From an uncultured bacterium (lineage in GTDB: Bacteria > Desulfobacterota_D > UBA1144 > Nemesobacterales > UBA2774): a DNA stretch of 64,000 nt. The translations under genes and the position numbers were made by a program. Positions 52,888 through 63,479 of the stretch are shown here, in pieces. Under the pieces are notes generated by a model, which did not search any database, was not told the origin of the DNA, and saw nothing but the letters and a program-made list of their open reading frames with translations. Numbering within the stretch: position 1 is the first letter of the stretch; each line of letters opens with the position of its first letter. Where the stretch lies: the NCBI GenBank assembly GCA_963825135.1, contig CAWGRW010000010.1, positions 1 through 64,000 on the forward strand. Reading direction: 5' to 3'.

Positions 52888-54138
52888 TCAAGACGAGCGC
52901 CTCCCGAGAATCCTCTCTCCGGCCGAACGGGTGAGCTTCCCCGTGCGTCTCACGAGCTCGAACACGGAATACATGACCAGATGCCATGCGCTCCCCATGC
53001 CGAAGACGTGCTGGAGGAATCCGGGGAACCCGGAAACCCTGGCAAGCAGATTCTTCCCGCCGTTTTCGCCCGAATAGGAATTCCAGAGAAACCTGAGCTC
53101 TACGAGCCCGACCAGGACACCCGGGGGCCTCGTCCTCACGCCGTATTCGAAACGCGCGGCCTTCGTCACGGGGACCGAATCCAGTTTTCGGAGGACCGCA
53201 TCGGGCACGCGAGATTCCGGATACCGGTTCAGATACCTGAGCGCTTCCCCGACGGCAAGCGCCTTTCCGTGCCTCTCCGCCCCTGAGGCGACCCTCTCCC
53301 AGTCAAGCCCCTCCCCTTCCTTACGCACTATGGCGGCCGCGTCGGCCACCCACCTTATGGGCGGGACTCTATTCCACGCGACCCCGTGCGCGCATACCTG
53401 GAGGAGCTGATCGGCGGGGTCGAGCGCGAGCGCCTTTACCCCCTCTACGCTTATGCTCCGCGCCCCTTCCCAGAAAGAGTCGTCCGCGTCGGGCCGGTTG
53501 TAGCCGTGGAGGAGGTGCCAGTGGAGGTCTATGGTGAACTGCGCGGGGTTGGTGAAGTCCTGCCCGTGCCTGACTGTGAAATATTCATCGGTATAGTCCT
53601 GAACGCCCCTCTCCCCCGGCGTCCATCCGAGCCTCGAGAGGAGCTTCATATCCGTAAAGCCCTTGAGCGGGGTGACGGAAGAGCGCCATCCGAGCCCCGT
53701 GATTATATCTATCGCCTCGCGCACGCGCGAGGTCGGGACGAGCAGGTCGGCGTCCATCATCGGGCGCGTGCCCGGGTCGCTGTAATAGAGTAGCGCGAGC
53801 GCCGAGCCCTTGAGGAGTATCGCCGGCATGCCGCGGCCGTTTAACTCCTGGAGGAGTGCCGAGAGCCTGCCGTAGAGCGTCCTGTTGTTGGAGAGTGTCT
53901 TCGCGTAGACCCAGCCGAAAATGTTCATGAGCGGGTCGCCGATGCCCATGGATTTGAGATTGACGTAGAGGAGGGGGAAGAGCCTGTAGGAGCCGGGGTC
54001 GACCGCGCCCATGTCGGCCGACGACTTCCATTCAAGAAAGGCGTCCACGGCTTCATCCCCGGTCAGTATGCAGGCCTTTAGCAGCAGCTCCTGCGGGCGG
54101 GTGGGCCAGCATCCGCCGTCGTTTATCAGTCCGCTCAT
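52888..54138 (-). CDS. Nucleotidyltransferase family protein (NTP_transf_5-like)
   Basis: LLKGSAL, RPMMDADLLV (DxD), IDLHW, CAHG, RWVAD. Confidence 0.85.
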   Translation of the reverse strand: MSGLINDGGCWPTRPQELLLKACILTGDEAVDAFLEWKSSADMGAVDPGSYRLFPLLYVNLKSMGIGDPLMNIFGWVYAKTLSNNRTLYGRLSALLQELNGRGMPAILLKGSALALLYYSDPGTRPMMDADLLVPTSRVREAIDIITGLGWRSSVTPLKGFTDMKLLSRLGWTPGERGVQDYTDEYFTVRHGQDFTNPAQFTIDLHWHLLHGYNRPDADDSFWEGARSISVEGVKALALDPADQLLQVCAHGVAWNRVPPIRWVADAAAIVRKEGEGLDWERVASGAERHGKALAVGEALRYLNRYPESRVPDAVLRKLDSVPVTKAARFEYGVRTRPPGVLVGLVELRFLWNSYSGENGGKNLLARVSGFPGFLQHVFGMGSAWHLVMYSVFELVRRTGKLTRSAGERILGRRSS

Positions 54139-54166: not shown

Positions 54167-54406
54167 CTATAATAGAAACGAATGTAACAAGCGAGGGATA
54201 AGGAGGAATTGTTCGTGCGGGATAGGGCTCAAATCGGATGCGCAGGCCTCTGTACAGGTTACCGCGTCCGCTGTAGCAAGGTTGAGCCCCCGGTTAAGCA
54301 TCATCACGGAAATAACGGTCGGGATGATGAACGCGCCCCAGGTCGCATTCTCCCGGAACTCGCGCCTTTCCGGGTTTATGCTTTAAAGAAATTTCTTTTC
54401 GCCCAT
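54167..54406 (-). pseudogene. Degenerate copy of the repeated precursor-like peptide
   Basis: MGEKKFL*SINPERREFRENATWGAFIIPTVISVMMLNRGLNLATADA..; in-frame TAA at 54385-54383; GGAG RBS. Confidence 0.8.
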
Positions 54407-54497: not shown

Positions 54498-54695
54498 TTA
54501 TGGAACAGGCATAGGAACCGCCCCATCGTTACTCTGGGCGTTCGCGGTCGTGAGGTTGAGCTTCTGGTTAAGCATCATCACGGAAATAACGGTCGGGATG
54601 ATGAATGCGCCCTTGGTCACTCTCTCCAGAAACTCGCGCCGTTCGGGATTCACGTCTTTAAGGAACCCTTTGGCGGCCTTCTCGTCGTCACTCAT
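54498..54695 (-). CDS. Precursor-like peptide copy (65 aa)
   Basis: MSDDEKAAKGFLKDVNPERREFLERVTKGAFIIPTVISVMMLNQKLNLTTANAQSNDGAVPMPVP; GGAGG RBS. Confidence 0.85.
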   Translation of the reverse strand: MSDDEKAAKGFLKDVNPERREFLERVTKGAFIIPTVISVMMLNQKLNLTTANAQSNDGAVPMPVP

Positions 54696-54815: not shown

Positions 54816-55923
54816 TCAGGATTTTTTAAGGAGAGCGGATATGAATTTGTGCTTCGTTCGGTATTCGGGGTTCTCAGGGTCCCGCGCGAGGGCGAGGGCG
54901 TAGCATCGCCCGCTCTCTTCGAGCCTGCCCAGCTTGAAATAGCACGTTCCCATGGGCTCGTACGAGAACTCGCGGAATATCCTGCTGTCGTACGAGATCC
55001 TGCCGGGGTCTATACCGTCGGGATCGACCGACGCGAGACTCCCGAAGAGCGCGGCCGCCTCCCCGTATGCGCCTCCGTGCATTAGCACCATGGCCCTGAC
55101 CCAGATCATCAGGTAATTGTCCGGGAACAGTGTCTCCGCTTCTTTCAGAACCCCGGAGTAGTCCTCGTCCTTTTCGAGCAGGAGCCTGATCAGATCGTAA
55201 TACGGCTGGCAGTCCCTGGGCACGATATCCTTTCTGCCCCGGATAGTATCTATCGCCCGCCGCCACTCCCGCTCCGCCCCCTCCGTATCGCCCAGGGCCT
55301 TGAGCACGGTGCCGAGCTTGTATCTGAGAAAGGAAATATCCGGATGGTCCTCGACGTGCTTACTGCAGAAGCGGCAGGTTCCTCCTGTGCTTGCGGCCCA
55401 TCTCCCCGTCATACCCGAGGTGGTCGATCTCGAGAATGGAATTCCCTATGGCAAGCCCCTCTTCCTCCCCCACCCTCGTGACGGAAGGGAGCACGGTCTC
55501 GTGTATTATCCCCTCGAACCTTATCCTCGGGTCGTTCCGGAATATCCTGAATTCCCTGAAAGGGGTAAACCCGGTGATCGGCCGGTAATTGACCGTAAAC
55601 GCGGCGTATCCGGGCCGCGAGAGGTCGGCTTTGACGAGGGATTTATCGACCGATCTCAGCCTCTCGTCGGCGTCTATGTAGAGTATCCATTCCCCCAGGC
55701 AGCGGTCGACGGACACGTTGCGGGCGGCGGAGAAGTCGTCCCGCCACGGGAAATCGAAGAGCCTCGCGCCGTACCGGGCCGCGATCTCCTTCGTCCGGTC
55801 GGTCGATCCCGTATCGACGATGACTATCTCGTCCGCTACGTCTTTAAGCGATTCGAGACAGCCTTCGAGGAAACGCTCCTCGTTACGCACGATCATGGCG
55901 GCTGAAAGGAATATATCGTTCAA
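54816..55923 (-). CDS. GT2 glycosyltransferase with TPR C-terminus, +1 frameshift near 55362
   Basis: MIVRNEE, VDTGSTD, DFSAARN, IDADE, IHE, HLGY; TPR helices continue in the adjacent frame. Confidence 0.85.
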
Positions 55924-56092: not shown

Positions 56093-56254
56093 TCAGTTGT
56101 CGTTACTCTGGGCGTTGGCGGTTGTGAGGTTCAATTTCTGGTTCAGCATCATCACGGATATTACGGTCGGGATGATGAACGCACCCTTGGTAACCTTCTC
56201 CAGGAACTCGCGCCTTTCGGGGTTTACGTCTTCGAGGAATTTCTTTTGGCTCAT
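56093..56254 (-). CDS. Precursor-like peptide copy (53 aa, absent from ORF track)
   Basis: Hand translation MSQKKFLEDVNPERREFLEKVTKGAFIIPTVISVMMLNQKLNLTTANAQSNDN*; GGAG RBS. Confidence 0.85.
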   Translation of the reverse strand: MSQKKFLEDVNPERREFLEKVTKGAFIIPTVISVMMLNQKLNLTTANAQSNDN

Positions 56255-56358: not shown

Positions 56359-56520
56359 TTACCCGTCGTTGCTCTGGGCGTTGGCGGTGGTGAGGTTCAA
56401 TTTCTGGTTCAGCATCATCACGGATATTACGGTAGGGATGATGAACGCGCCCTTGGTAACCTTCTCCAGGAACTCGCGCCTTTCGGGGTTTACGTCTTCG
56501 AAGAACTTCTTCATAGCCAC
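56359..56520 (-). CDS. Precursor-like peptide copy (53 aa, GTG start, absent from ORF track)
   Basis: Hand translation MAMKKFFEDVNPERREFLEKVTKGAFIIPTVISVMMLNQKLNLTTANAQSNDG*; GGAGG 6 nt before GTG. Confidence 0.85.
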   Translation of the reverse strand: MAMKKFFEDVNPERREFLEKVTKGAFIIPTVISVMMLNQKLNLTTANAQSNDG

Positions 56521-56644: not shown

Positions 56645-58392
56645 TCAGAGGGAGCGCATGTATTCGAGGAGCTGCTGCTGGGAGCCCTCGTTGGTCCATC
56701 TGTTCTCGATCCACCGGGCCCCCTGCATGGCGCGTATGAGGTGGCTGCCGTAATTCCGGTACACGTCCCATACCGCGTCCTCTATGTCGCCCAGGCTGAC
56801 CCTGTCCCACTGCCCGTAGGCATTCCCTTCGTAGTTCGCATCTTCCTTCCCGCAGACCGGTATGACCTTACAGAAACCGGATTCGATTATCTCCCGGTGG
56901 ACCGGAATATCGGTCAGAAGCGTCGGTATGCCCAGATACATGCTTTCGCGAGGGGTGAAAGACCACCCCTCCCCGCTCGACGGGAAGACGTAACATGAAA
57001 GATTACGGTACCATTCGCCCGTCCGCTCGTCGGTCCACTCCCCCCAGGTCCATTCGACGAACGGGGAGCGTTCCATCAGGGCGACCTCGGGCGTGTACAT
57101 ACCCCGCATAAACATGGAGGAATGAACGACGAGCCTGAGCCCGGGGATTTTCCCCAGGAGATTCACGCACGCCTGATAGAGTTTGAATAAATTTTTTCTC
57201 TTGTAAGGCACGCCCAGGAACCCGATCCTGAAAACGTCGCCCCGGGGCTTGATAGAGGACCTCCTGTCGTACCTCGTGAACCCCTGCTGTATAGCGGCGA
57301 CCGGGATTCTGACGCCCGAGGATTCGAACACCCCCTTCATGTATTCATGAGGGACGATACAGCGGGCGTAATGCTCGTTAATCGGCTTTATCCAGTGACG
57401 GGGAATCTCCGACGTCTCGAACGTAGTATAAGCTACGTTGATATTTCCCTTCGAAAGCCTGTCGGTAAAAAACGGCGCCATACCGGCAACCAGGACCTTT
57501 TTGCTCGAGAGATGCTTCGTATCTTTCACGACCGTGCCGATAACGCTCGAACGGTCGTACACCGTGGTCAGGCCGTCGAAGGGCTTTTCCTTGTATATCC
57601 GGAGCACGTATATATCGTCGGGAATATTTATTCCGGCGATTTTCGAATCTATCCCGCGGCGGATACCGGCGGCAGCCGCCGCGCTCACCTTCTTCCTTGA
57701 GCCGCCCGCGTATTCGGGCGATCCCTTCTTGTGCTCCCACCTCCAGGAAGCCTCGTGGTGGTGCCTGCCGTAGTTCCCGAAATGGCAAGCTACCGCCCCC
57801 GTTACGGGACATATGCGGTCGGGGTTCGGGAGGAGCACCACGTCCCTGAGCTTTTGCCTGCAGTCGTGATACACCGTGGTTACGAGGCCGGGGCCGGTGG
57901 ATTCGAGGACGTCGTTCTCGGTCAGTATTTCGCGGCGCGACTCCCGTGCCATCTTTCTCAGTATATGGAGCAGGAACGGGTGGCCGGGCTCGCTCCCGAA
58001 CATGTAGTTCGCCACGCGGAGTCGGTCCCTGTGTCCGAGCCTCAGGGCCGTCTCCACGGTCAGCGTCGATTCCTCGCCGAACACGCAGCGGAATTCGCAA
58101 AGCCCGTCGAGCGGGTTAAGGCACTCGACGTCCATGTCCATATAAAACCCGCCCTCCCCGTAAACGACTACGATGCGGAATATATCGGTCCTCTGAATGA
58201 CCGACGCGCGGTCGTAAACCGGGAGGAACTCGGGGAAGAACCTTGTTCAACGGCGTCCCTGCACGCCTCATCGTCGTAGAATTTGTATTCCCAGGCGGGA
58301 TGGAGGGCGATGAGGTTCTCCCTGTAACGGCGGTACTTCGCCGGAACGTCCTCGTTCTTATACGTCTGGTGGATTATCCTGGGGATGGCCAT
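56645..58392 (-). CDS. Bifunctional glycosyltransferase: GT32-like DxD domain fused to GT4-like domain; frameshift near 58240
   Basis: IPRIIHQTYK, DIFRIVVVYGEGGFYMDMD, PGHPFL, TGPG; C-terminal RKN, VFPSSGEGWSFTPRE. Confidence 0.8.
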
Positions 58393-58418: not shown

Positions 58419-59153
58419 CTATCCTTCTATTCCGTCCAGCAGGCGCGACGCCTCTTCCCCGGTGTACCTGCCGTCGAGTATGCCTTTAATTATCGAGGTC
58501 GATTCCGCCGAAAGCTCGCTCGACGCGCTGAATATCTTCTCCCAGTGCTCTCTCGTGCACAGGTTGTTACCGTGATAAACGTATATATAGAGCTTCGGCA
58601 TCATCACGGGGAAAATGAGGCTCCGCTTGAAGAGCTCCCTTATGAGGTACGTATCCTCGTGCCGGAAGACTTCCTCGTACCTGAGATCGCCGCCGAGTAA
58701 CGATTTCCTGCACAGGAGCGACCCCTCCCACGGCCTCCTGTTGGATAGATAGGCCTTACCCGTACGCTCGTCATACATGAGCCAGTGAAATAGAAGGCAC
58801 GCGGGCAGCCCGCTCGCCTTGATCACGTCCATCTGGAACGAGAGCCTGTCGCGGTGAGACCAGTCGTCGTCGTCCCATTGGCAGAAATACTCCCCGCGGC
58901 ACTCCGCCAGGGAACGGTTTCTCAGTCTGCCGAGATTAAATCCTTCGGAAGAAGGCAGCTCGACTAAAATGAGATTATGATCTTCCAGGGCTCTCACGTA
59001 TTCGGCCGTCTCTCCGTCATCGCTCTCGTAGAGTATTACGAGCTCCTTCCGAGGATACGTCTGGTCCCTGAAGGACTGAACGGCCCTTTGGAGGAGCTTC
59101 TTCCTGCCGTGCGTAACGCAGAGGCACGATATGAGCGGCATGTCGTCATTCAT
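58419..59153 (-). CDS. GT2 glycosyltransferase
   Basis: ISCLCVT, QTYPRKELVI, LGRLRN, QWDDDD, HED, YVYHG. Confidence 0.85.
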   Translation of the reverse strand: MNDDMPLISCLCVTHGRKKLLQRAVQSFRDQTYPRKELVILYESDDGETAEYVRALEDHNLILVELPSSEGFNLGRLRNRSLAECRGEYFCQWDDDDWSHRDRLSFQMDVIKASGLPACLLFHWLMYDERTGKAYLSNRRPWEGSLLCRKSLLGGDLRYEEVFRHEDTYLIRELFKRSLIFPVMMPKLYIYVYHGNNLCTREHWEKIFSASSELSAESTSIIKGILDGRYTGEEASRLLDGIEG

Positions 59154-60267
59154 GTCGGGTCCCGGTTTTTTTCAGCAGCGCGCCCAAGAATTTGCGTTTG
59201 GTTTCATACTCATGGTTGCCGGGGCGGAGCTCGGCCGCGAGCGAATAGTATTTGAGGCTCTCCCCGTATCTTCCGAGCTTGAAAAGACAGGCCGCGAGAG
59301 GCTCATAGGAAAGCTCGCCGAATATGGCGGTGTTGTACGAGAGGGGGCCTTCGACCAGGGTCTCGGGGTCAACGGAAACGAGCGATTCGAGGAGCGGGAC
59401 GGCTTCTTCGAAACGGCGGCTCCGCGCGAGCGTCACCGCCCTGGTCCATATCAGGAGATAGTTGTCGGGGAAGAGGCGGAGGGCCTCGTCGAGGAGCGCG
59501 GAGGAGTCCCCGCCCTTGTCGTTGAGAAGACAGATCATTTCATAAAACGCGTGACTGTCCTCGTGCGTCACGGTCTCTTTCCGGCGCGATATTTCCATGG
59601 CTTCCGTCCACGTCTTTTCGGCCGCGTCCGGGTCTCCGAGGCCCTTCAGGGCCACGCCCAGCTGCCACCTGAGATACATCCTCTGCGGCTCGTTCTCTAT
59701 CTGTTTTATGAGCAGGGGGAGGTTCCTCCCGTGCTTTTGCAGGAGGTCCCCGTCGTAGCCGGTGTGGTCTATGGCGAGGGGGCAGTCGCCGATGCCCATC
59801 CCGTTCTCTTCCATGAAGACCTCGATCGAGGGGAATATGGTCTCGTGAATGGTGTTGCAGAACCGTATGCGGGGGTCGTTCCTGAAAATCCGGTATTCCT
59901 TGTACGCGGTATAGCCACCTATGGGGTGGAACCTGACGGTATAGACGGCAATCTTCGTGTCGGAAAGTATCCGCGTTACCTCTTCCCTGCTCACGGGTCT
60001 GAGCCTCTCGTCAGCGTCTATGTAGAGTATCCATTCGCCGCGGCAGTGATCGAGGGACTCGTTGCGTGCGGCTGAGAAATCGTCCCGCCAGGGGAAATCG
60101 AAGACCCTCGCGCCGTACCGGGAAGCGATCTCCTTCGTCCGGTCGGTCGATCCCGTATCGACGATGACTATCTCGTCGACCACGTCCCTGATGGATTCGA
60201 GACAGCCTTCGAGGAATCGCTCTTCGTTGCGCACGATCATGGAGGCCGAAAAGATTATATCGCTCAA
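59146..60267 (-). CDS. GT2 glycosyltransferase with TPR C-terminus
   Basis: TTG start with GAGG RBS (matches paralog start); MIVRNEE, IDADE, IHE, HTGY; TPR helices. Confidence 0.88.
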   Translation of the reverse strand: MSDIIFSASMIVRNEERFLEGCLESIRDVVDEIVIVDTGSTDRTKEIASRYGARVFDFPWRDDFSAARNESLDHCRGEWILYIDADERLRPVSREEVTRILSDTKIAVYTVRFHPIGGYTAYKEYRIFRNDPRIRFCNTIHETIFPSIEVFMEENGMGIGDCPLAIDHTGYDGDLLQKHGRNLPLLIKQIENEPQRMYLRWQLGVALKGLGDPDAAEKTWTEAMEISRRKETVTHEDSHAFYEMICLLNDKGGDSSALLDEALRLFPDNYLLIWTRAVTLARSRRFEEAVPLLESLVSVDPETLVEGPLSYNTAIFGELSYEPLAACLFKLGRYGESLKYYSLAAELRPGNHEYETKRKFLGALLKKTGTRHE

Positions 60268-60403
60268 TTCCTCATCACCAGGATTAAATAATAACCGGAG
60301 AGGACGCGTACCAAAACGGCGGGGAACAGGAAATATAAAACTCGGGGGACGGGACGCGTGCCCGTGAAAAGCGGATTGCCGGGTCACAAAAGGCGTCCGG
60401 GCT

Positions 60404-61021
60404 TTAACCGCAGTAAGGCTGATCTTCCGGCAAAAGGAGCTTACGAATGAAGAACTTCGAATCCGGGGCAAGCGTGCTGCCCAGAGGAATTCCGTTTGCG
60501 AAGTAAAATCCGGTCTCGCCGGAAGGCAGGAGGTCGTACGTATGACCGGCCTCGTACCGGACCTTCTCTATCGATAACAGCACCGCTCCGTCCAATGTGT
60601 CGCCCGGCAAGAGATCGCCTGCTTCCCCGGCGTCCGTGGTAGGATGCCCCGGAGACACGAACAATTCTCTGCCGTCATTCAAAACCAGACGACAAAGGGT
60701 ATGGTCTCCCGGAACCGACGCCTTCGACACGAGCTCTATCGGTCTTACGACCTTGTTTCCGTTCGAGTCGAGGGTGAATACCGGCATCCCCGGCCTTAAA
60801 TCGACGATGGAAACGTCCCCGTCCGGGGTCGAGATCAGGGTCGCCGCAGACAGGCACGGCGCTGTCCCGTTGCTCTGGGCGTTTGCCGTCGTGAGATGGA
60901 GCTTCTGATTGAGCATCATCACGGAAATGACCGTCGGTATAACGAACGCGCCCTTCGTAAGCTTCTCGAGGAACTCGCGCCTCTCGGGATTAACGCCGTC
61001 CAGAAACCTTTTGTCACTCAT
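60404..61021 (-). CDS. Precursor-like peptide fused to a Hint autoprocessing domain
   Basis: Residues 1-55 are the repeated peptide; Cys56 starts CLSAATLISTPDG (block A), VSPGHP (block B-like), TYDL..FYFANG (blocks F/G) with no His-Asn. Confidence 0.85.
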   Translation of the reverse strand: MSDKRFLDGVNPERREFLEKLTKGAFVIPTVISVMMLNQKLHLTTANAQSNGTAPCLSAATLISTPDGDVSIVDLRPGMPVFTLDSNGNKVVRPIELVSKASVPGDHTLCRLVLNDGRELFVSPGHPTTDAGEAGDLLPGDTLDGAVLLSIEKVRYEAGHTYDLLPSGETGFYFANGIPLGSTLAPDSKFFIRKLLLPEDQPYCG

Positions 61022-61059
61022 GATACGCCCCCTTTATATTACAATACAGACTGCGACGA

Positions 61060-61896
61060 TTATATCACAGACATTTTTTCCTGTAAACCCGAGACGGCCC
61101 CATCGAGATCGCCTATATAAAGCAGATAGCAATGAGCGCTGTCTATCAGCCCGCATAGCCCGCCGATTTTCAAATGGTCGTTTGTCTCCGAAAGGAAGCT
61201 CATGGGCATAATTTTCTCGACCATGCGGTATTTGGGGCACTCCTCTATACGCGTCTCTCCGCCGTGATTCCGTACGAGATAGAAGACGGCGCTGACTTCC
61301 CCCTCGTCGATCTTCCAGGGGCGTCCCGCGTCGAGGGGCGTAAACGAGTACATCTTCTGTTTATTGTAGGTGATGTTGTACGGGAGCGATTCGAAGGGCG
61401 GCTTCATTTTCGGCAAAAGACCCGTGCTCTCCTGTTTGATGTTGAACCGCCTCGGGAACGGTATGGCCTTGCAGTCCCGGACAAGCGCGAGCTCGTCCCC
61501 GACGACCCGAAATCCCGCCAGCACCAGACTGACCATGAGCGTGGTCTTCCCGGCTCCCTTGTCCCCGACGACAAGGAACCTCTTCCCGTTCCATTCCGCG
61601 CACCCGGCGTGAATGCGTATCCTGTCCGTGATCCCGGAAAGCACCTCCTTGTGCATGAGCCACTGGAGGTTGAAGATCGTGGCGCTGAGGTCGCCCGAGG
61701 AGTGGCGGACCTCGCCGCTTCTCAGGACTTCATAAACGCCGTCCCTGACCCTCAATTCATAGAGGGCCTCGTTCGTGACGGGATAGTCCTGCTCCGCGTC
61801 GTGCACTATGAAATCGAGAAGGCGCGCCGATTCTTCGTCTTCGGTGCGTATGGTGAATGCGGTGTCGAGCAGTGTATGCCTGCGTTCGTGAATTAT
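61060..61896 (-). CDS. HPr-kinase-related P-loop kinase
   Basis: IHAG, GDKGAGKTT, VGDE, PFPR; frame is open 30 codons upstream of GTG 61806 up to the PqqD stop; start uncertain. Confidence 0.8.
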   Translation of the reverse strand: MIHERRHTLLDTAFTIRTEDEESARLLDFIVHDAEQDYPVTNEALYELRVRDGVYEVLRSGEVRHSSGDLSATIFNLQWLMHKEVLSGITDRIRIHAGCAEWNGKRFLVVGDKGAGKTTLMVSLVLAGFRVVGDELALVRDCKAIPFPRRFNIKQESTGLLPKMKPPFESLPYNITYNKQKMYSFTPLDAGRPWKIDEGEVSAVFYLVRNHGGETRIEECPKYRMVEKIMPMSFLSETNDHLKIGGLCGLIDSAHCYLLYIGDLDGAVSGLQEKMSVI

Positions 61897-62150
61897 TTGA
61901 CCAGTCCTTCCTGAATGAGCGTATTGAGGCAGTCGGCGACTTCTTTCTCCGGGTCCTCCGGGAGCTGATACGCCTCCCTCACGACCGCCGTGATATCGGC
62001 CAGAGAGTTTGTGCCCGTGCAGGCCTCGAGCACGAGCACCGCGGTCTTGTTGAGGTAGTGGACCTTATCCTTCTCGCTCTGGTAGATGACGTAGCCGTCC
62101 TCGACCTCGTTTATGTCTATGCCATCGGCTATTTTGGGGTATTCGCTCAT
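61893..62150 (-). CDS. Stand-alone PqqD-family RiPP recognition element
   Basis: 85 aa; VEDGYVIY..KVHYLNKTAVLVLEAC.G..DCLNTLIQEGLV pattern; AGGA RBS. Confidence 0.88.
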   Translation of the reverse strand: MSEYPKIADGIDINEVEDGYVIYQSEKDKVHYLNKTAVLVLEACTGTNSLADITAVVREAYQLPEDPEKEVADCLNTLIQEGLVK

Positions 62151-62287
62151 CGAAGTACGTCCTGCCTCGTTTCGGTATTTGTAAAAACAGAGTATTTATT
62201 ATCCCGAATTGCGGCGGGACTTTCAAGACCGCGGAGGAATCACATGCGAACCTGCATCGGGAATTTTCCGAAATCGGTCATCAGAAA

Positions 62288-62330
62288 CAAAAAAAACCCC
62301 GGAACGCCTCTATGGGCGCTCCGGGGCTTT
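62288..62330 (-). terminator. Rho-independent terminator after the small lipopeptide gene
   Basis: ccccggaacgcc/gggcgctccgggg stem with an A-run (U-tail on minus strand). Confidence 0.65.
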
Positions 62331-62366: not shown

Positions 62367-62525
62367 CTATGACTGGGTCGAGTCGCCCGAGCCCGAACCT
62401 GTGGGCTGGTTTGACGTCGTGTCCTTATCCTTTCCGCCGCAGGCGAGTACGTTAGACGTAGTCAATACTATTCCGCCGAGCGCTATCCCCAATGTAATTG
62501 CCAGTGCAAATAATACCTTTTTCAT
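62367..62525 (-). CDS. Small secreted or lipidated Ser/Thr/Gly-rich peptide (52 aa, absent from ORF track)
   Basis: MKKVLFALAITLGIALGGIVLTTSNVLACGGKDKDTTSNQPTGSGSGDSTQS*; GGGAGG RBS; VLAC lipobox; own terminator. Confidence 0.7.
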   Translation of the reverse strand: MKKVLFALAITLGIALGGIVLTTSNVLACGGKDKDTTSNQPTGSGSGDSTQS

Positions 62526-62642: not shown

Positions 62643-63479
62643 TCAAGGCTTCCTCGTCCACGCGCTTATCCAGGTGTTCGACATGCCCACTCTGTCGGCC
62701 GCCCCGACGTCCGCGGCTTCGGCGGCGAGTCTCTCCTTGAGCGTGTCGATGCCGACTTCGTCCGCCGTAGCGATGCCGAGCTTCTCCATCATCGGCAAGA
62801 GGCTCTTTATAGTGCTGACGAACCAGTCAATACCCGGGGAGTTCGCCCCGCCCACGAACGCGTCCATGTGCATCGCGGGCTCGGGAAGTCCGGCCTTCAT
62901 ATAGACCGGGAGGAGCTTGAACCCCATCTGCATCTCCGTCCCCGACTTTTCCATAGCGGCGTACAGCCAGTCCCAGAGCTTCATGAACAGCGGAAAAGGC
63001 GGTATCGCCACGGGGCGTATCGTAAAGTCCACCTCCTGGAAAACGACCACTCCGCCCGGCTTCACGTGCCGGACAAGCGTCGTCAGGACCTTGACCGGCT
63101 CGGGCACGTACATCAGCACCGCCCGCCCGGCAAGCGCGTCGAACACCCCCTCGGGCTCGGCCGCGCCGATATCGCCGACGACGAACCTGATATTGGCGAA
63201 GCCCCTTTCCAGGGCCCGCTTTTTCGCCGTCTCCTGAATCTCCGGGTTCCTCTCTATGCTGACGACCTCACCCTTGGGCCCCACCATCTCGGCCAGCAGC
63301 AGCGCCACGTCCCCGGCCCCCGTGCCTAGCTCCAGCACCCTCATGCCCTTCCCGATGCCCGCGAGCTCGAATATCCTCTCCGTCGTCCGGATAATTATCC
63401 GCGACTGTTCCTCGAGCCGCTTCTTCTCGTTCTCCGTGTCGCTGAGCGCGTATTCTTTCTTAATGTCGCTATCCGCCAT
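62643..63479 (-). CDS. Class I SAM-dependent methyltransferase
   Basis: VLELGTGAGDV, FVVGD, FDALAGR, VKPGG. Confidence 0.9.
   Translation of the reverse strand: MADSDIKKEYALSDTENEKKRLEEQSRIIIRTTERIFELAGIGKGMRVLELGTGAGDVALLLAEMVGPKGEVVSIERNPEIQETAKKRALERGFANIRFVVGDIGAAEPEGVFDALAGRAVLMYVPEPVKVLTTLVRHVKPGGVVVFQEVDFTIRPVAIPPFPLFMKLWDWLYAAMEKSGTEMQMGFKLLPVYMKAGLPEPAMHMDAFVGGANSPGIDWFVSTIKSLLPMMEKLGIATADEVGIDTLKERLAAEAADVGAADRVGMSNTWISAWTRKP

Follow-up and report, generated by a model that had tools for sequence, protein, structure and literature searches.

The window is a 64,000-nucleotide stretch from an uncultured sediment bacterium (contig CAWGRW010000010.1, positions 1 to 64,000). On its reverse strand it has a gene in which a small peptide, similar to precursors of peptides that are made by the ribosome and modified after translation (RiPPs), is fused to a predicted Hint domain. 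The open reading frame (ORF) encodes 205 amino acids (aa), begins with ATG and is preceded by AAAGGGGG, a good ribosome-binding site. Residues 1-51 read MSDKRFLDGVNPERREFLEKLTKGAFVIPTVISVMMLNQKLHLTTANAQSN. Hint domains have been described in inteins, in Hedgehog and in a small number of bacterial secreted proteins, whereas leader removal in RiPP pathways is known to be the work of proteases. By the literature searches made, the peptide-Hint fusion is undescribed: no description of a Hint domain joined to a RiPP precursor was found in a search that did not cover the supplementary precursor lists of PMC13381572. This agrees with the original prediction, made from the sequence of the window, which knew of no cluster of this type with Hint chemistry. 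A search on Hint_2/PF13403 returned only the unrelated human HINT2. The parts of the gene are as follows.

60404..61021 (-): peptide-Hint fusion gene, ORF of 205 aa
60869..61021 (-): residues 1-51, conserved module of the peptide, in order RREFL, hydrophobic GAFVIPTVISVMML, ANA and Q-S50-N51, from the alignment
60857..60868 (-): residues 52-55 (GTAP), hypervariable linker with Pro55 as the -1 position, from comparison of the family
60467..60856 (-): residues 56-185, predicted Hint domain, from profile, AlphaFold model and Foldseek
60856-60854 (-): codon of Cys56 (tgc)
60655-60653 (-): codon of Ser123
60646-60644 (-): codon of His126
60535-60533 (-): codon of Asp163
60478-60473 (-): codons of Ser182-Thr183
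60404..60466 (-): residues 186-205 and stop, short C-terminal tail with a conserved S-P-x-S-x-F-x-I-R-K and then variable, from the alignment

On profile and model evidence, residues 56-185 belong to the Hint (Hedgehog/intein) fold superfamily. A profile of 64 family sequences matched the engineered consensus intein 6dsl in the PDB (E 3.3e-9) over residues 81-179, from block B to block G. The AlphaFold model, built on the 64-member alignment, has block-mean pLDDT values of 88-97 over residues 61-180, and of 74 and 71 in the blocks at the domain edges. Foldseek against the PDB found the intein gp41-1 (7.7e-9), the bacterial intein-like structure 2lwy (1.2e-7, TM 0.78) and the Hedgehog Hint 1at0 (5.1e-7), with a probability of 1.00 throughout and TM scores of 0.7-0.78. 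The proposal that the peptide is fused to a Hint domain opening at Cys56 is therefore confirmed at the level of the fold by family profile, AlphaFold and Foldseek.

The catalytic set for an N-S acyl shift is retained in the Hint part (Cys56, Ser123/His126 and Asp163). Cys56, His126 and Asp163 are invariant in the 64 family members and Ser123 is nearly so (at least 90%); Ser123-x-x-His126 is the equivalent of the TxxH of block B. Among 147 outside relatives, Cys56, Ser123, His126 and Asp163 are kept at 99-100%, and the larger set that also includes Thr161, Ser182 and Thr183 is conserved at 97-100%. The C-terminal His-Asn of inteins is absent, as had been noticed earlier. The domain ends in ANGIPLGSTL (G181-S182-T183-L184), Gly-Ser occupies the positions of the intein His-Asn, and GSTL closes the domain in 115 of the 119 family members. 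The tail of 10-22 aa after the Hint is conserved in the peptide-Hint family and absent from most outside Hint relatives. In the model, the tail of the window protein has pLDDT below 50 from residue 190 on.

The operon also encodes free copies of the peptide.

56359..56520 (-): free peptide gene, 51-53 aa, ending in ANAQSNDG, an ORF similar to the fusion
56093..56254 (-): free peptide gene, 53 aa, ending in ANAQSNDN, an ORF similar to the fusion
54498..54695 (-): free peptide gene, 65 aa, ending in ANAQSNDGAVPMPVP, an ORF similar to the fusion
54260..54406 (-): degenerate peptide copy with an in-frame TAA and 71% identity, a decayed fifth copy found by similarity

Residues 1-51 of the fusion are 85-86% identical to the three free ORFs. 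Residues 1-55 had been taken for a full peptide copy; residues 1-51 match the free copies, and residues 52-55 are a variable linker. The four copies of the peptide in the window were compared pairwise over 42 shared codons. Five of the six pairs have 15-20 synonymous and 2-4 non-synonymous differences, and the remaining pair, the two 53-aa free copies, has four synonymous differences and no non-synonymous one. Since synonymous changes far outnumber non-synonymous ones, the free copies are genes too. The consensus of the module is ...VNPERREFLEKVTKGAFIIPTVISVMMLNQKLNLTTANAxSN. Up to A48-x-S50-N51 the sequence is near-invariant, and the 2-16 residues that come after it form a hypervariable tail. 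All 31 free copies compared have Ser50, and 108 of 119 fusions have SN at positions 50-51.

The linker before the Cys is 1-10 aa long in the 119 fusion members and its sequence is unconstrained; the -1 residue is P in 35 of them, I in 24, V in 20 and N in 13. Fused linkers (GTAP, MTVP, DG, LPP and others) resemble the tails of free peptides (MTLP, DG, LPPPP and others). Therefore, a cut at X|Cys would give a peptide like the free copies, and in that sense the free genes would be pre-cut versions of the fusion. The peptide also has a nearly invariant N-x-T sequon, N42-L-T44 (peptide residues 42-44). In many tails and linkers Asn51 is followed by x-T (MT.., GT.., VT.., IT.., QT..) and is thereby part of a further sequon at residues 51-53; the two sites fall within window positions 60863-60898. 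No N-glycosyltransferase was recognised among the cluster proteins.

A word-index search with the fusion protein found 893 proteins at E<=1e-3, on many independent contigs. The 120 of these that were listed are 52-100% identical to the query, 150-227 aa long (mostly 195-227) and cover 74-100% of it (most at least 93%). Forty of the 120 have a precomputed PF13403 label, and the named sources among them are metagenome-assembled genomes of Dadabacteria or Thermodesulfobacteriota. Four orthologues were compared, and the three comparisons with unsaturated dS gave dN/dS values of 0.035-0.105 for the peptide part and 0.12-0.15 for the Hint. These ratios indicate that both parts are under purifying selection, and the peptide module is more conserved than the Hint in the alignment as well as in dN/dS. 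The 4-codon linker, with a dN of 0.38-0.48, changes freely.

The search for longer proteins with the peptide module scored 133 word-sharing candidates only. All of the 126 longer carriers found were Hint fusions or fragments of them, four being frameshifted and three cut short. The possibility that the module is a general-purpose signal on many passengers was rejected on this result. The genome of the window has a second fusion on contig C9 and a near-duplicate of it on the small contig C17. The 3.2-kb contig C17 (L004, G000:C17, 1134-1754) nearly duplicates the C9 locus (L003), where the orphan fusion is located. The Hint of C17 contains a locally divergent stretch resembling a compensated double frameshift, and this contig is probably a strain variant or an assembly artefact.

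The Hint part has many relatives outside the peptide family. Searched alone against 1.84 billion representatives, it gave 1,381 matches at E<=1e-3, and 1,121 of these were at 1e-10 or better. The top 149 matches other than self are proteins of 126-993 aa, mostly with 47-57% identity. In these, the Hint is at the extreme C-terminus and most end 1-3 residues past GSTL, with a few longer tails. The first Hint residue is Cys in 147 of 148 outside relatives, the usual junction is C-P-I|C-L, and the -1 residue is Ile in 114 of 148, compared with Pro as the commonest in the peptide fusions. Most of the N-termini shown resemble signal peptides, lipoprotein signals or pilin-like anchors. The cargoes among 25 scanned relatives include PKD, peptidoglycan-binding, dockerin, Kazal, cupredoxin-like, FGE-sulfatase and pentapeptide domains.

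In a FastTree tree of 193 Hint segments, for which only a midpoint root was available, the peptide-bearing sequences form one group of 46 with an SH-like support of 91. The group consists of 40 sampled family sequences and six initially unlabelled ones, one of which is degenerate. Its sister (support 95) is a set of four proteins with a different conserved cargo end. In these four (P0134, P0136, P0141 and P0181) the cargo is a small secreted protein or lipoprotein, and its conserved end before the Hint Cys is GTYVYRRxDGxLFRGTANRCR; they are another uncharacterised Hint-tail family. Since the peptide-fused Hints are one branch of a clade in which over 1,000 exported proteins end in a Hint tail, the Hint is not specific to RiPPs and was not devised for the peptide. 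It is, judging from the tree and the cargoes, a general and presumably self-processing tail of exported proteins that was joined to the peptide apparently once.

The other genes of the cluster are listed below from its head.

62643-63479 (-): methyltransferase adjoining the cluster, with similarity to PCMT-like, FxLD-system and ATP-grasp-maturase methyltransferases
62367..62525 (-): 52-aa lipoprotein-like ORF at the cluster head, conserved in related loci
61893..62150 (-): PqqD-family RiPP recognition element (RRE), 85 aa, PF05402 E 8.3e-10, TIGR04353 29 bits and below its cut-off of 35
61060..61806 (-): HprK-like P-loop kinase, 248 aa, TIGR04352 (HprK-related kinase A) E 2.6e-16, 59.6 bits and below its cut-off of 200
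59146..60471 (-): GT2 glycosyltransferase with TPR repeats, SunS-like, PF00535 1.9e-23, TPR families, TIGR04195 1.4e-18
58419..59153 (-): GT2 glycosyltransferase, from the domain scan
56645..58141 (-): GT1 (GT-B) glycosyltransferase, from the domain scan
54816..55923 (-): second GT2-TPR gene in two overlapping ORFs (55360-55923 and 54816-55412), from the domain scan
52888..54138 (-): PF14907 nucleotidyltransferase, PF14907 E 2.3e-39

The PF05402 match supports the earlier view that the cluster is of the RRE type. Against PDB sequences, the best match of the PqqD protein is the lasso RRE TfuB1, which is weak (E 0.017), and the HprK-like kinase weakly matches HPr kinase (E 0.24). Complex predictions of the PqqD protein with a free peptide scored 0.04, 0.34 and 0.01 against a mark of 0.32 and count neither way on binding. 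The longest ORF of the first GT2-TPR gene would start with the TTG at 60471 and so share 68 nt (60404-60471) with the end of the Hint gene. Its true start is probably downstream because homology to relatives begins only near residue 46-69. The second GT2-TPR gene is one continuous match in L008 and L011, and its split in the window is either a frameshift or a sequencing error. Because GT2-TPR is kept in clusters with no fusion and no Cys in the peptides, Cys56 was rejected as the target of a SunS-like S-glycosyltransferase.

The gene order is conserved in 24 related loci. It runs from the methyltransferase, where there is one, through the 52-aa ORF, PqqD, the HprK-like kinase, 0-2 peptide-Hint genes, GT2-TPR, GT2, GT1 and 1-5 free peptide genes, in some cases the second GT2-TPR and another peptide, to the PF14907 nucleotidyltransferase. 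The trio of PqqD, HprK and PF14907 is conserved in these loci. The junction between HprK and GT2-TPR is spanned in 15 loci, and ten have a fusion there, so other peptide-Hint fusions do occur in homologous clusters, as the original prediction had suggested looking for. Two fusions are found in L008, L010, L011 and L013. In L017 the fusion is placed after the free peptides, and in L012, L014 and L016 there are fusions with no cluster genes within the flanks covered. Among 120 genomes of the class, Hint was found in 15, the kinase in 20 and the peptide in 20, nearly all in one family, and 15 of the 15 Hint-bearing genomes also have the peptide. As the genomes are related and some are incomplete, these counts describe a pattern and are no test. 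Sequencing datasets that matched window positions 59900-62300 were 18 of DNA and none of RNA, which has no bearing on expression.

The 52-aa ORF encodes a signal peptide, a lipobox-like V-L-A-C and a Ser/Thr/Gly-rich mature part of 23 aa, and is conserved at 75-96% in L008, L009, L011, L018, L022, L023 and L024. Its lipoprotein-like product could be another substrate or an acceptor. The methyltransferase adjoins the cluster in the window, L008, L018, L022 and L024, and was not found in L011, L013, L030 and L031. Aspartimide or isoaspartate chemistry is conceivable because many tails begin N-D-G or N-G, which are succinimide-prone.

The cluster resembles those of the linear polyphosphorylated peptides (LPP) of Bacillota defined by Popov et al. 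2026 (PMC13381572), to judge from its gene content. According to that paper, LPP clusters encode a discrete RRE together with an HprK kinase, an NTP-transferase, a homologue of signal peptidase I and an exporter, all among glycosyltransferases. The precursors, of 35-200 aa, are conserved at the N-terminus and variable at the C-terminus. Core Ser3, which lies in the fragment AQSNWK, is polyphosphorylated by the kinase, and leader cleavage takes place two residues upstream. HprK-type kinases also phosphorylate a Ser of lasso precursors in the paeninodin and pseudomycoidin systems, and PF14907-like PsmN is needed for hexoses on that phosphate (PMC6993621). By analogy, we infer that the kinase may act on Ser50 and that a phosphate-linked glycan may be attached there.

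Residues 1-48 look like a twin-arginine translocation (Tat) type export signal ending in ANA. ERREFLEK, the hydrophobic GAFIIPTVISVMML, the invariant Lys40 and A46-N47-A48 follow the twin-arginine layout. Plausible Tat substrates of the same genome start with RREFLR, RRRFLQ or RRDFLK, and TatC is encoded. The nearest family-named ESM-Atlas clusters are Tat-signal N-termini (Rieske, hydrogenase small subunit and methylamine dehydrogenase) at 0.85-0.87, which are leads only. However, several results speak against an export signal. No Tat-signal hidden Markov model matched the module at E<=0.1, and the Kyte-Doolittle value of its hydrophobic stretch is 2.38 compared with 1.7-1.9 in the canonical Tat signals of the genome. 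A disposable signal would not usually be more conserved than its passenger, as the module is in comparison with the Hint, and Hint is the only passenger found on it (126/126). From its sequence features, the module may combine the roles of a recognition leader and of an export signal or anchor. Since residues 1-48 are signal-like, a 55-aa product is not assured. The final product may, on the same features, be much shorter than 55 aa or a membrane-anchored peptide. The original prediction of a product of about 55 aa sized like the free copies is therefore supported in part, by the linkers that mirror the free tails, and weakened by the signal-like residues.

From the domain content and the analogy with known pathways, the Hint could be a self-cleaving C-terminal pro-domain, which forms a thioester at residue 55 and releases a peptide like the free copies within a modification pathway of PqqD, HprK, PF14907 and glycosyltransferases; this proposal stands at about an even chance of being correct. 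The thioester at residue 55 followed by release from the Hint is the most economical reading because the N-terminal catalytic set is complete and the Asn is absent. According to PMC9163320, Hedgehog and inteins share a Cys-initiated N-S acyl shift aided by TxxH, with a role for Asp in Hedgehog too; the Hedgehog thioester is resolved by cholesterol, whereas the completion of splicing in inteins requires the terminal Asn. Type B bacterial intein-like (BIL) domains have no block G and are described as giving junction cleavage and no splicing (PMC4031507).

In the proposed pathway, the PqqD recognition protein, the HprK-like kinase, the PF14907 nucleotidyltransferase and three to four glycosyltransferases would act on the precursor. 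The N-terminal module would be recognised in the cytoplasm, and Ser50 would be phosphorylated and then glycosylated, as suggested by LPP, paeninodin and pseudomycoidin. The RREFL motif, the hydrophobic stretch and ANA would then drive export or membrane insertion. Cys56 would attack the carbonyl of residue 55 in an N-S acyl shift aided by Ser123, His126 and Asp163, a step proposed from the catalytic residues and the anatomy of the family. The thioester would be resolved, by default through hydrolysis, and the Hint would leave a peptide with a short variable tail in the format of the free copies.

A number of observations weigh against this proposal. The sole Pfam family that matches the Hint part, Hint_2 (PF13403), does so over residues 55-96 only, with E 1.6e-5 and 25.8 bits (25.2 in the scan of the own genome), which is less than the cut-off of 28.4. 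This match of the single sequence is weak, and the profile and structure tests of the fold are stronger. TIGR01445 (intein N-terminus) gave 21.8 bits, also less than its cut-off of 24.5. Pro is the commonest -1 residue (35/119), including in the window gene, and Pro at -1 hampers N-terminal cleavage in engineered inteins. Removal of a leader at ANA would leave a released piece of 4-13 aa and not of about 55. No fusion is present at the HprK|GT2-TPR junction in five of the 15 loci (L023, L024, L026, L030 and L031), and six of the 21 cluster- or peptide-bearing genomes have the kinase and/or the peptide but no Hint. As these loci and genomes keep the pathway and have no fusion, the free peptides must be able to serve their function, whatever it is, without the Hint. 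Also, no SipW-type signal peptidase I (LppS) and no MsbA-like exporter, which PMC13381572 describes for LPP, are found among the cluster proteins. For TIGR02228, nothing in the own genome scored over the cut-off; the best hit had 16.7 bits and lies on another contig.

The thioester could instead be resolved by transfer, as in Hedgehog. A nucleophile such as a lipid, a cell-wall component or a protein amine would attack it after export, and the phospho-glycosylated peptide would be anchored by its C-terminus, with the free copies as the unanchored form. This is possible, if somewhat doubtful. The layout of cargo and then Hint is that of Hedgehog, where cholesterol attacks the thioester (PMC9163320), the Hint clade sits on exported and surface proteins, and the conserved 10-22-aa tail has the position of the Hedgehog sterol-recognition region. 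Free and fused copies kept in one operon also suggest different products. However, no acceptor, transferase or binding region was identified, the short tail is disordered in the model, there is no conservation at -1, and type B BILs are reported only to cleave (PMC4031507). The more specific version of this idea is unlikely: the Hint thioester would be a ligation handle and, after phospho-glycosylation of Ser50 and Tat-type export, the C-terminus of the peptide would be transferred to an envelope acceptor in a bacterial counterpart of Hedgehog cholesterolysis. Nothing was found that points to the cyclisation of the peptide that had also been considered.

It is also conceivable, but quite unlikely, that the Hint is itself the cargo. 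A 48-residue Tat-type signal or LPP-like leader would be removed at ANA, which would give an exported Hint with a phospho-glycosylated Ser two residues from the new N-terminus. Cleavage by the Hint would then be slow or absent, and the Hint would have another role, for example in binding or in the regulated release of a 4-13-aa glycopeptide. The Tat-like layout of the module, the genome's similar canonical signals (RREFLR and RRDFLK) with TatC, and the ESM-Atlas leads would fit, as would LPP precursors of up to 200 aa, from which a homologue of signal peptidase I removes the leader two residues ahead of the phospho-Ser (PMC13381572). The cluster proteins include no exporter or peptidase of their own. 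All of the results given above against an export signal also count against this explanation, as does the full conservation of the catalytic residues. A canonical splicing intein, a pseudogene or an assembly chimera has a negligible probability. Although the fold is intein-like, nothing else favours these possibilities. They are ruled out by the 893 homologues on independent contigs, by GSTL instead of His-Asn and by the dN/dS values. No host protein is interrupted: the part in the place of an N-extein is a peptide of 55 aa, only about 20 aa of variable sequence stand for a C-extein, and most relatives are almost without a C-extein.

If the proposed self-cleavage is true, a natural precursor with its own thioester-forming Hint would be a new maturation device for RiPP biology. 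Non-splicing bacterial Hint domains, which are poorly understood, would gain a tractable substrate of only 55 aa. With cut and uncut forms both encoded in one operon, a simple comparison could show what the Hint adds. Another phylum is also added to the newly described LPP peptide family (kinase, RRE and nucleotidyltransferase), with leaders that resemble signal peptides.

The system joins a non-splicing Hint tail to an LPP-like peptide pathway; both are of known kinds, their combination is new, and the chemistry is not of a new kind. It shares with type B BIL and Hint_2 proteins the Hint fold, the N-terminal Cys, T/SxxH and the lack of block G. It differs from those described in PMC4031507 in that the cargo is a 55-aa peptide of a RiPP-like operon and not a large secreted protein, and the Pfam score of the window protein is under the cut-off. 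Hedgehog HhC, as PMC9163320 presents it, is similar in the order of cargo and then Hint, in the conserved Cys, TxxH and Asp and in having no Asn cyclisation; however, the window protein has no sterol-recognition region but only a low-confidence tail of about 20 aa, and its host is bacterial. The outside Hint-tail proteins have a Hint that is about 50% identical and the terminal GSTL, but their cargoes are folded extracellular domains with a CPI|CL junction, whereas here a RiPP-like peptide is the cargo and the junction is hypervariable. Tat signal peptides, including uncleaved anchors of the Rieske type, are alike in RRxFL, the hydrophobic stretch, the basic residue before A-x-A and TatC, and the module differs in being unusually hydrophobic and conserved, in matching no Tat model and in having Hint as its sole passenger.

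The closest parallel to the pathway is LPP, as described in PMC13381572. Both have a discrete PqqD-type RRE, an HprK-like kinase, a nucleotidyltransferase and surrounding glycosyltransferases, and precursors with a conserved N-terminus and a variable C-terminus. The wording 'uncharacterised nucleotidyltransferase' is common to the PF14907 protein, PsmN and LppN. A48-Q49-S50-N51 compares with the published phospho-Ser fragment AQSNWK; the leader motif YxxPxVLxHQxIxFETxxS of LPP is absent, so that only A-Q-S-N around the Ser is similar. The cluster of the window differs from LPP in belonging to another phylum, in its signal-peptide-like leader, and in that some of its precursors have a Hint domain.

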